From the NCBI GenBank assembly GCA_964016885.1, contig OZ024757.1:40796001-40860000 (forward strand): 64,000 nt of DNA, given 5' to 3'. A program made the position numbers and the translations under genes. Shown piece after piece: positions 25,922 through 54,211 of the stretch (positions are counted from its first letter, which is position 1; each line of letters starts with the position of its first letter). The notes under the pieces were generated by a model. It did no database searches. It saw only the letters and a list, made by a program, of their open reading frames with translations, and was not told the origin of the DNA. The stretch is from Eledone cirrhosa. Its lineage: Eukaryota.

Positions 25922-26993
25922 TATTATTATTATTATTATTATTTGCATTTATCTTACTTTATGTTCATACGAGTTATCACCAAGTCACAACCAGTGACCT
26001 CAAGAGACAACAAGGTCTGCCATGTTCAAGAAAGAGCATAGATATTCACACATGCATCCTTAGTGTTTAGACTTGTGATGTACTTATATTGACAGGATCT
26101 TCCTTAGTATATGGGCAGTTCCCATTAGTACTATCTTTTGTATTTCTTCTATACGCGGGTTTCCTGGGATTTGCGATAAGTAGTCGTTAGACCCCTTAGG
26201 TATCATTCCCAGAGCGCCTACAACCACTGGTATTGTTTTAGTTCTCAATTTCCACATTTTTCCAATTTCTATCTCCAGGTCCTTATACTTGCTCAATTTT
26301 TCAAATGTTTTTATAGATACATTCTTGTCTATTGGAAGAGACATATCAATTAGCAGGCATACCCTCCTTTGAAAGTCCTTCAATATTATATCAGGTCTAT
26401 TTGCATCTATTTTTCGGTCTGTTTGGATGCTAAAGTTCCACAAGATTGAGATGTGATCTTTTTCAAGTATGGGAGGTGGTTGATGCTCCCACCAATTCTT
26501 TTGATGGGGCAGGTCAAAATGCTTACACATTATCCAATGTATGTATTGTGCAGCTCTGTCATGCCTGTTTAGGTATTCGGTTGGAGCTATAGGACTGCAC
26601 ATTGAAATTATATGGTCAATGGTCTCTGGTTGTTTTTTGCATACACGGCATAATGGGCTGCACCCCTTTTTTATTATGTTGGCTTGGTAATTTTTTGTTG
26701 GCAGACACTGATCTTGTGCCGATATAATCAGTCCTTCAGTCTCCGATTTCAGTCCAGAGGATGCCAACCACTGATGGGTTAAAGTTTTGTCAACATCAGG
26801 ATTGTTAGCTCGCTCTGGGTATTTTCCATACAGAGGCTTTTCTTGCCATTTCTTAGCCAGTTTCTGTAGCAGTTCTTTCTTTGCAGTTACTTTTACCTGG
26901 TTTGCTTTTTCTGTGTTTTCCATTTCAGCAGTAAATGGGACTTCTGAAATTTGTAGTCCATTACTGTATCTTTGTGCATCTTTTGTAATGGAA

Positions 26994-27047
<54 letters not shown>
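25922..27047 (-). mobile_element. 5'-truncated R4/Dong-clade non-LTR retrotransposon within (TAA)n
   Basis: ORF C-terminus plus a ~140-bp 3'UTR. Flanked by (TAA)n on both sides (25922-25942 and ~26994-27047). Confidence 0.85.
26084..26995 (-). pseudogene. C-terminal CCHC zinc knuckle plus restriction-like endonuclease of an R4/Dong retrotransposon
   Basis: CRVCKKQPETIDHIISMC (C-X2-C-X8-H-X4-C), RHD, NRPDI, IDMSLP and KLSKY motifs. The frame stays open upstream of the listed ATG (26923) up to the (TAA)n junction. The RT domain is absent. Confidence 0.88.
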
Positions 27048-27054: not shown

Positions 27055-27387
<333 letters not shown>

Positions 27388-45309: not shown

Positions 45310-45382
45310 GGCCGCGTGGCCTAACGGATAAGGCGTCTGACTTCGAATCAGAAGATTCCGAGTTCGAGTCTCGTCGTGGTCC
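45310..45382 (+). tRNA. tRNA-Arg(TCG), possibly a pseudogene
   Basis: 73-nt cloverleaf: acceptor GGCCGCG/CGTGGTC (two G·U), D arm GCC/GGC, anticodon arm TCTGA-CTTCGAA-TCAGA and T arm CCGAG-TTCGAGT-CTCGT (one mismatch). The discriminator is an atypical C. Confidence 0.85.
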
Positions 45383-51952: not shown

Positions 51953-52307
51953 AAAAAGAAAATCAATCTGTGAACGCAGACAATATATATATATATATAT
52001 ATATATAAATTGAAACAAAATGAAAACGAAATTTCATTTCTCACTCTTAGTATGGCACTTACTTAAATGTAAGTATGCATGTATACGTACATACATATAT
52101 GTATACAGACGTACAGTAGCATGCACATATATATATATATATACATATATACATACATATGCATAGAGGTACACATACATATATGCACGTATCAGTTTAG
52201 CGGCGCTAACGTCGCTTTGTTCGTTTGTAAACAAACTGAACAGCCTGAATTTATGCCATACGGTGTTAAGGCAACCACGTCACCTTTTTGTTCAACACTG
52301 ACACAGG

Positions 52308-52352
52308 AACGATGTACTAGTTTCAAGCTTGTTAGCTATCATCAGCACCGTT
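52308..52352 (-). ncRNA. Minimal hammerhead of the 466-bp unit, copy 1
   Basis: Reverse complement of 53220-53264. Confidence 0.82.
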
Positions 52353-52773
52353 TACCCATCTGCCAGATAGTTGAACGTTCGAAAGTATATACTTTCCTTA
52401 TGAAAATTAACGGCTGAGCAGCCTAATTTGCATATTGAGTGAGTAAAATCGGTCAGGCATACCGAAAACGATAAATTGAAACAAAATGAAAACGAAATTT
52501 CATTTCTCACTCTTAGTATGGCACTTACTTAAATGTAAGTATGCATGTATACGTACATACATATATGTATACAGACGTACAGTAGCATGCACATATATAT
52601 ATATATATACATATATACATACATATGCATAGAGGTACACATACATATATGCACGTATCAGTTTAGCGGCGCTAACGTCGCTTTGTTCGTTTGTAAACAA
52701 ACTGAACAGCCTGAATTTATGCCATACGGTGTTAAGGCAACCACGTCACCTTTTTGTTCAACACTGACACAGG

Positions 52774-52818
52774 AACGATGTACTAGTTTCAAGCTTGTTA
52801 GCTATCATCAGCACCGTT
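52774..52818 (-). ncRNA. Minimal hammerhead of the 466-bp unit, copy 2
   Basis: Lies 466 bp from copy 1 and is identical. Confidence 0.82.
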
Positions 52819-53219
52819 TACCCATCTGCCAGATAGTTGAACGTTCGAAAGTATATACTTTCCTTATGAAAATTAACGGCTGAGCAGCCTAATTTGCATA
52901 TTGAGTGAGTAAAATCGGTCAGGCATACCGAAAACGATAAATTGAAACAAAATGAAAACGAAATTTCATTTCTCACTCTTAGTATGGCACTTACTTAAAT
53001 GTAAGTATGCATGTATACGTACATACATATATGTACATACATATATGTATACAGACTAAGAGTGAGAAATGAAATTTCGTTTTCATTTTGTTTCAATTTA
53101 TCGTTTTCGGTATGCCTGACCGATTTTACTCACTCAATATGCAAATTAGGCTGCTCAGCCGTTAATTTTCATAAGGAAAGTATATACTTTCGAACGTTCA
53201 ACTATCTGGCAGATGGGTA

Positions 53220-53264
53220 AACGGTGCTGATGATAGCTAACAAGCTTGAAACTAGTACATCGTT
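53220..53264 (+). ncRNA. Minimal hammerhead of the 466-bp unit, copy 3
   Basis: AACGGTG-CTGATGA-T-AGCT-AACA-AGCT-T-GAAA-CTAG-TA-CATCGTT. Stem I is 7 bp (one G·U) and stem III is the palindrome ACTAGT. Cleavage is predicted after 53257. Confidence 0.85.
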
Positions 53265-53685
53265 CCTGTGTCAGTGTTGAACAAAAAGGTGACGTGGTTG
53301 CCTTAACACCGTATGGCATAAATTCAGGCTGTTCAGTTTGTTTACAAACGAACAAAGCGACGTTAGCGCCGCTAAACTGATACGTGCATATATGTATGTG
53401 TACCTCTATGCATATGTATGTATATATGTATATATATATATATATGTGCATGCTACTGTACGTCTGTATACATATATGTATGTACGTATACATGCATACT
53501 TACATTTAAGTAAGTGCCATACTAAGAGTGAGAAATGAAATTTCGTTTTCATTTTGTTTCAATTTATCGTTTTCGGTATGCCTGACCGATTTTACTCACT
53601 CAATATGCAAATTAGGCTGCTCAGCCGTTAATTTTCATAAGGAAAGTATATACTTTCGAACGTTCAACTATCTGGCAGATGGGTA

Positions 53686-53730
53686 AACGGTGCTGATGAT
53701 AGCTAACAAGCTTGAAACTAGTACATCGTT
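53686..53730 (+). ncRNA. Minimal hammerhead of the 466-bp unit, copy 4
   Basis: Identical to copy 3; cleavage is predicted after 53723. Confidence 0.85.
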
Positions 53731-53979
53731 CCTGTGTCAGTGTTGAACAAAAAGGTGACGTGGTTGCCTTAACACCGTATGGCATAAATTCAGGCTGTTC
53801 AGTTTGTTTACAAACGAACAAAGCGACGTTAGCGCCGCTAAACTGATACGTGCATATATGTATGTGTACCTCTATGCATATGTATGTATATATGTATATA
53901 TATATATATATGTGCATGCTACTGTACGTCTGTATACATATATGTATGTACGTATACATGCATACTTACATATATATAT

Positions 53980-54029
<50 letters not shown>

Positions 54030-54037
54030 ATATATAT

Positions 54038-54093
<56 letters not shown>

Positions 54094-54101
54094 ATATATA
54101 T

Positions 54102-54211
<110 letters not shown>

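Follow-up and report, generated by a model that had tools for sequence, protein, structure and literature searches.

A hammerhead array in Eledone cirrhosa: a putative young retrozyme insertion with a Penelope-like footprint

In a 64,000-nt stretch of Eledone cirrhosa DNA (the window), a 466-nt unit with a hammerhead ribozyme occurs in tandem and then again, in tandem, in the opposite orientation. How is such an array written into a genome, and from which RNA? Judged by its sequence, the array is a young insertion that belongs to a non-coding hammerhead family of high copy number, a non-LTR retrozyme. We consider it probable that a reverse transcriptase (RT) and endonuclease of a Penelope-like element (PLE) wrote it into (TA)n, probably with a single 466-nt RNA circle as the template on both sides of the break. 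This proposal rests on the size of the family, the (TA)n flanks, two fixed ends (sites A and B), scattered and overlapping junctions, arms of a single variant and repeated A-to-G marks.

The array and its hammerheads

Self-comparison of the window confirmed the tandem plus inverted-tandem layout that an earlier note had read from the letters, with an exact 466-nt period across 52005-53035 and 53055-53971. The inverted arms (52067-52983 and 53055-53971) are perfectly complementary over 917 bp with 71 nt between them, and at the centre a 14-nt slip duplication (53036-53049) is followed by a 2-nt AC overlap (53055-53056). The segment 53258-53723 is identical to the reverse complement of 52315-52780, so that both arms would release the same 466-nt RNA, as had been predicted. 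The hammerheads face outward only, on the minus strand in the left arm and on the plus strand in the right arm. The outer ends are unlike: the left one (52005) lies at site A and has a 62-nt tail, the right one (53971) lies at site B without a tail, and (TA)n adjoins both (Table 1). The GC content of the unit is 35% and its reading frames are of low complexity only, over the TA-rich tract. Non-coding, low in GC and without LTR-type organisation, the unit shows these defining features of non-LTR retrozymes.

Table 1. Features of the array and its flanks, in window positions
Feature	Position	Strand
3'-end fragment of another PLE family, a separate insertion; same end 3' of a PLE ORF in loci L033 and L039	51880..51983	-
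(TA)n target, left flank	51984..52004	no strand
Left arm, ~2.2 units, outward, up to (TA)n, where it stops at unit position 310 (fixed site A)	52005..53056	-
62-nt tail between sites B and A, this end only	52005..52066	-
Type I hammerhead, left arm outer copy; predicted cut between 52315 and 52314	52308..52352	-
Type I hammerhead, left arm inner copy; predicted cut between 52781 and 52780	52774..52818	-
Head-to-head junction: 14-nt slip duplication, then 2-nt AC overlap of 5'-truncated arms	53036..53056	no strand
Right arm, ~2 units, up to (TA)n, where it stops at unit position 248 (fixed site B, in the loop of an ACUUAC/GUAAGU hairpin)	53055..53971	+
Type I hammerhead, right arm inner copy; predicted cut after 53257	53220..53264	+
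Predicted 466-nt monomer (cut to cut), internal TA-rich tract, non-coding	53258..53723	+
Type I hammerhead, right arm outer copy; predicted cut after 53723	53686..53730	+
(TA)n target, right flank	53972..54207	no strand

The hammerhead parts that had been listed for each unit are present in all four copies: CUGAUGA (at 53227 and 53693 on the plus strand, 52811 and 52345 on the minus strand), a 7-bp stem I with one G.U pair, a stem II of U.U plus 4 bp, GAAA, ACUAGU and a GUA site. All hammerhead core nucleotides are present in the unit; an Rfam scan of the window left the hammerhead uncalled at the gathering score. In fold predictions, stem III of a monomer has 2 bp closed by 2 nt, and between two copies it becomes a 6-bp ACUAGU duplex. 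Such a stem III is that of the dimer-dependent hammerhead form (PMC4209133), and the earlier proposal of a retrozyme-type unit whose hammerhead is predicted to need a dimer agrees with it. Among Xenopus dimers, only 1/9 cleaved in vitro (10.64898/2026.07.22.740005, a 2026 preprint). The circular fold of the monomer is strongly self-paired (z about -7).

The pattern of variation suggests that the ribozyme is under selection, as lineage variants avoid its core. We compared 78 loci chosen by their ends, discarding loci chosen by their hammerhead as circular. Variants common to at least three loci fall at 0/26 core, stem II and stem III sites vs 30/190 elsewhere (p=0.016), and lineage-level variants within the hammerhead lie at N7, in loop II and at two stem I positions (one changing G.U to A-U). 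Support for selection is only moderate because the sites are not independent and 18/164 sliding 26-nt windows outside the hammerhead are equally free of variants.

Elsewhere in the window, another repeat family contributes three minimal, related hammerhead motifs, at 27160 (+), 44250 (-) and 45606 (-); hammerhead-like motifs with a long stem II at 97 (-), 33361 (-) and 36064 (-) resemble Hydra-type PLE ends in fetched loci. A 303-codon frame (26084-26995, -) lacks a Pfam match and has a similar piece in L043; it resembles the C-terminal region of a non-LTR element, with a zinc knuckle and a restriction-like endonuclease. A tRNA gene was found at 45310-45382 (+) with 56 bits, its anticodon read as UCG.

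A large family with two fixed ends

The unit is not single-copy, the case that the earlier note had set against its own reading: a 33-nt hammerhead pattern gave 10,608 matches in the 3.0-Gb assembly and a reversed-pattern control gave 0. Tandem units that each carry a type I hammerhead, dispersed and in high copy number, are what is expected of a retrozyme. The window's subfamily is very young, because 30/40 scored matches to a 291-nt piece show full identity, in 8 loci distributed over 7 contigs. Older subfamilies, to about 80-90% identity, show the same form, and the window locus is an ordinary copy of the family.

Arms end at unit position 310 (site A) or about 248 (site B) and then run into (TA)n, both in the window and in a first set of 60 loci. 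Across the assembly, 2,672 A sites run into (TA)n and 7,382 are internal; forward B-to-(TA)n matches number 1,892 (overlapping matches inflate the reverse count of 3,335). A second set of 60 loci was chosen solely by an A end and called automatically. An inverted 5'-truncated head-to-head copy was called in 41/60 of the A-anchored loci; the inverted arm ends at B in 35, two of them on very short arms, and elsewhere in 6, three of which look like B variants by eye. A second A end on the inverted arm was seen in 0/60. The remainder comprises 18 loci without a called inversion, some of them missed short arms or broken chains, and one assembly gap. Sites A and B are both predicted to be unpaired, and both end in TA or AT.

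The inner junctions are scattered (n=47: 12 with inserted letters, 2 fold-backs that were dropped, 33 clean), and 19/33 of the clean ones overlap by at least 2 nt vs 17% by chance, a share that alignment ends may inflate. The (TA)n target is present, and any target-site duplication is unreadable inside it. With an inverted truncated copy and a tail at one end only, insertions of the family match the PLE footprint, and insertion of the PLE type is very likely. The Penelope connection drawn by the earlier note is upheld by the head-to-head arms, the one-end tail, the (TA)n target and the pairing of A with B (35 loci) and never with a second A.

Candidate enzymes are at hand in the same genome. 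Intact PLE frames are numerous (114 scored, many of 821 codons), and their RW, DKT and CxCX5C motifs match the description of the Hydra clade in a motif comparison with PMC8557442. Pfam assigned none of 11 window ORFs and 4 PLE ORFs to a family, and the PLE and Hydra labels rest on these motifs. The A/B pattern of ends recurs with intact 809-aa ORFs that have Hydra motifs, and their tail hairpin is similar. A RAGUGC hairpin occurs in several PLE tails and also lies at site B of the unit; beyond it, the unit shares nothing with any PLE family compared (H1, H2, H3, H5/X and two others, by eye and by profile). No PLE end resembling the unit came out of a profile search that covered the window and 110 fetched loci, and an ORF with RT and GIY-YIG parts flanked by the unit was found neither at the window locus nor among the fetched loci. 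The suggestion that the unit is the pLTR of a coding element, adjacent to a PLE ORF, was therefore abandoned.

Several other loci show the unit or PLE ends in further arrangements. The unit is joined straight to broken Hydra-type PLE ORF pieces from the endonuclease and RT regions in L044:3752-4621 and L047:2716-3369. In L038:4158-4220, L060:4020-4090 and L079:2950-3138, an A-ended retrozyme arm stands head to head with the end of another PLE family, the partner end being B-type in L038 and L060; these mixed joints possibly record two different RNAs in one insertion, or a later deletion. A very abundant PLE end (L031:3729-3915; 34,757 matches) has the same two-end pattern, mostly as short inverted pairs with a one-end tail and with no canonical hammerhead by scan; one copy sits inside the unit's internal TA tract, and a relative lies 3' of an ORF in L054. 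A second hammerhead tandem family, with 310-nt units, adjoins an array of the window's family in L034:5900-7900.

The largest array seen (G000:C3:12.27-12.33 Mb, L270-L272) has at least 66 units over 50 kb and ends at site A. Its listed hammerheads all share two A-to-G changes, one of which turns GUA into GUG at the cleavage triplet and is predicted to be inactivating, and its recurring higher-order variant patterns point to later local expansion into a satellite. L264 was considered as a daughter of this array and ruled out, as it belongs to a different subfamily. Parts of the unit were also present in 20/24 listed sequencing runs, filed under about 15 organism codes. The listing named no RNA run containing the unit, a result without bearing on its expression. 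Of four runs examined, one had 4,163 contigs with the unit and the others had 1, 10 and 1 contigs of low depth; for these, carry-over, kinship and transfer cannot be told apart.

The template and competing readings

On balance we favour, by a modest degree of confidence, twin rolling-circle reverse transcription by a pair of PLE enzymes, in which a single ribozyme-made RNA circle is copied into one strand from A and into the other from B. Tandem copies would be transcribed, paired hammerheads would cut out monomers and a host ligase would close these into circles. A PLE protein, of a kind predicted to be a dimer and found to nick and extend both strands in vitro (PMC11167929), would then prime one cDNA at A and one at B via 2-3 nt of TA pairing. 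Each RT would round the circle a variable number of turns, and microhomology would join the two cDNA ends, leaving outward arms with a tail on one end.

The template was not a cut linear monomer, because the cleavage site shows no accumulation of 5' ends: 2/192 mapped ends lie within a few bases of it vs 4.35 expected, and alignment artefacts account for part of an excess near -209 and -159. In 39/44 cases the two arms of a locus resemble each other more closely than they resemble the median other locus, and arms often have a common, locus-typical unit length. Clonal arrays alone are no proof of a circle, as two seemingly private variants recur genome-wide (66 and 133 matches) and are markers of sub-lineages; we dropped the argument built on them.

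A further line of evidence comes from A-to-G marks. A pattern requiring one A-to-G change gave 161 matches, and among the 100 of these that were listed, 66 lie in one array; the editing survey covered 20 stretches, or 18 loci, chosen by A-to-G pattern. L263 has 5 A-to-G marks, one of them in the catalytic A9, that are identical in both full units, and its inverted arm has one A-to-G change absent from the other arm. In L265, about 20 marks are common to both arms and 5 are common to the tails upstream and downstream of the hammerhead; the tails differ at one mark, and G was seen in 0/533 sampled tails at each of the five sites (redundant loci included). Repetition of this sort points to a circle because a reverse transcriptase would meet the same nucleotides again on a circle and different ones on a linear multimer. 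The repeated multi-mark pattern was found in 2/18 of the fetched loci. Four edited loci with 4-6 marks contain just one full unit, and the rest mostly bear a single mark; in the C3 array marks are common to all units, yet local expansion is clear there. The repeated marks of L263 and L265 point to an RNA stage and a circle, with conversion within the locus as a possible other source. Given insertion of the PLE type, we hold a circular template to be likely.

The same kind of mark is found in other copies. A strong A-to-G excess in the RNA sense was seen in L145:1110-1980, L265:3144-4330 and L266-L269, and the same edited sites (-23, -15, -4, -39/-37) recur in different subfamilies. Differences of the L145 stretch from its nearest relatives include 18-23 A-to-G changes among 31-38, a pattern found at L145 alone that fits A-to-I editing of the template RNA; L145 also looks converted between neighbouring copies. 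These copies are likely reverse-transcribed A-to-I-edited RNA, and we presume that ADAR was the editor. RNA of the family would thus have met a dsRNA editor and still been copied into the genome.

A possible but doubtful alternative keeps the PLE enzyme and the start sites and replaces the circle by an uncut linear multimer transcribed from existing arrays, with hammerheads and circles as by-products. The absence of run-off at the cut site fits it as well as a circle, long source arrays exist (19 hammerheads in L205, at least 66 in the 50-kb C3 array), variants common to many loci mark sub-lineages, and the main in vitro substrate of the PLE protein PAc is unprocessed RNA (PMC11167929). However, the identical marks on successive L263 units and on both sides of the L265 hammerhead require a circle or later copying within the locus, and source lineages retain the catalytic core, which would cut such templates.

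It is improbable that short PLE-type insertions were expanded and homogenised in place, by unequal crossover and conversion between inverted arms, in which case the number of units would be uninformative on the template. Higher-order variant patterns of the C3 array and the converted appearance of L145 are what such a process would leave, but young arrays with zero divergence, exact A/B ends and two multimeric arms occur on many contigs, and local expansion does not predict multimeric growth of both arms at once.

The earlier note had also proposed a special bidirectional locus that makes the same RNA from both strands, or silences itself as a hairpin. Each arm does contain a hammerhead pair, read-through would give a 917-bp duplex, and hyper-edited copies show that RNA of the family was edited as dsRNA. 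The inversion is nevertheless the ordinary insertion footprint of the family, at least two hammerheads are present in both arms in only 6/60 of the A-anchored loci, which makes symmetric pairs a by-product of arm length, and junction positions are scattered; the self-paired monomer could itself attract editing. A purpose-built locus of either kind is very improbable. We give practically no credence to an assembly or fold-back read artefact, to which the 100% identity of the copies and the lack of a sequencing-run contig spanning the whole stretch might point, as the arms end at two different fixed sites, junctions are locus-specific in 47 cases, minus-to-plus joints in the unit recur many times in an independent run and diverged old copies share the form.

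Relation to known elements and significance

The family is a further member of the known non-LTR retrozymes (reviewed in PMC11722881), with unusually clear genomic evidence for insertion that is PLE-driven and probably of the rolling-circle kind. Metazoan non-LTR retrozymes (PMC7229834; 10.64898/2026.07.22.740005) likewise consist of tandem, non-coding units that each carry a single type I hammerhead, are low in GC and reach thousands of copies. The U.U at the base of stem II is shared with axolotl HHR_Amex2, and PLEs are present in the same genome, as in other retrozyme hosts. At 466 nt the unit is above the 170-400 nt of PMC7229834 and within the 51-972 bp of the preprint. Both sources propose tandem cDNA templated by circles and/or mobilisation by PLEs. 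Head-to-head arms, fixed A/B ends and editing scars are not described for retrozymes in the main-text passages and abstracts covered here; supplements such as Fig. S9 of PMC7229834 or the preprint tables may hold locus diagrams.

Insertions of EN+ PLEs (PMC3846280, PMC8557442) likewise have an inverted 5'-truncated copy, a one-end tail, microhomology joins, (TA)n and a repeat with a hammerhead, and non-autonomous head-to-tail PLE derivatives are known for Chlamys (same sources). Unlike them, the family described here has no ORF, and in both of its arms a short unit can be repeated many times; its tail is 62 nt vs 30-40 bp. PAc (Poseidon, Anolis; PMC11167929) also has two internal RT start sites that define the tail, and AT-rich targets; in vitro this predicted dimer cuts and extends both DNA strands, hammerhead cleavage is dispensable for insertion and no circle is used. 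In contrast to PAc, each arm of the present family can be traced to one start site, and there are hints that the template was circular.

How retrozymes are mobilised, and how PLEs come to have inverted copies with a one-end tail, are stated as open questions in the literature covered here. The family offers a readable record of both, with a single fixed start site per arm, a ribozyme cut at which copying does not stop and marks that recur at each turn. It also supplies a test system within one genome: a 466-nt RNA, sites A and B, a (TA)n target and intact PLE ORFs. If the circle reading is true, the ADAR scars are a barcode of an individual RNA molecule. Twin rolling-circle copying, if true, would give a direct view of how retrozymes spread in animals and would solve the old puzzle of why Penelope insertions in general are inverted and have a tail.
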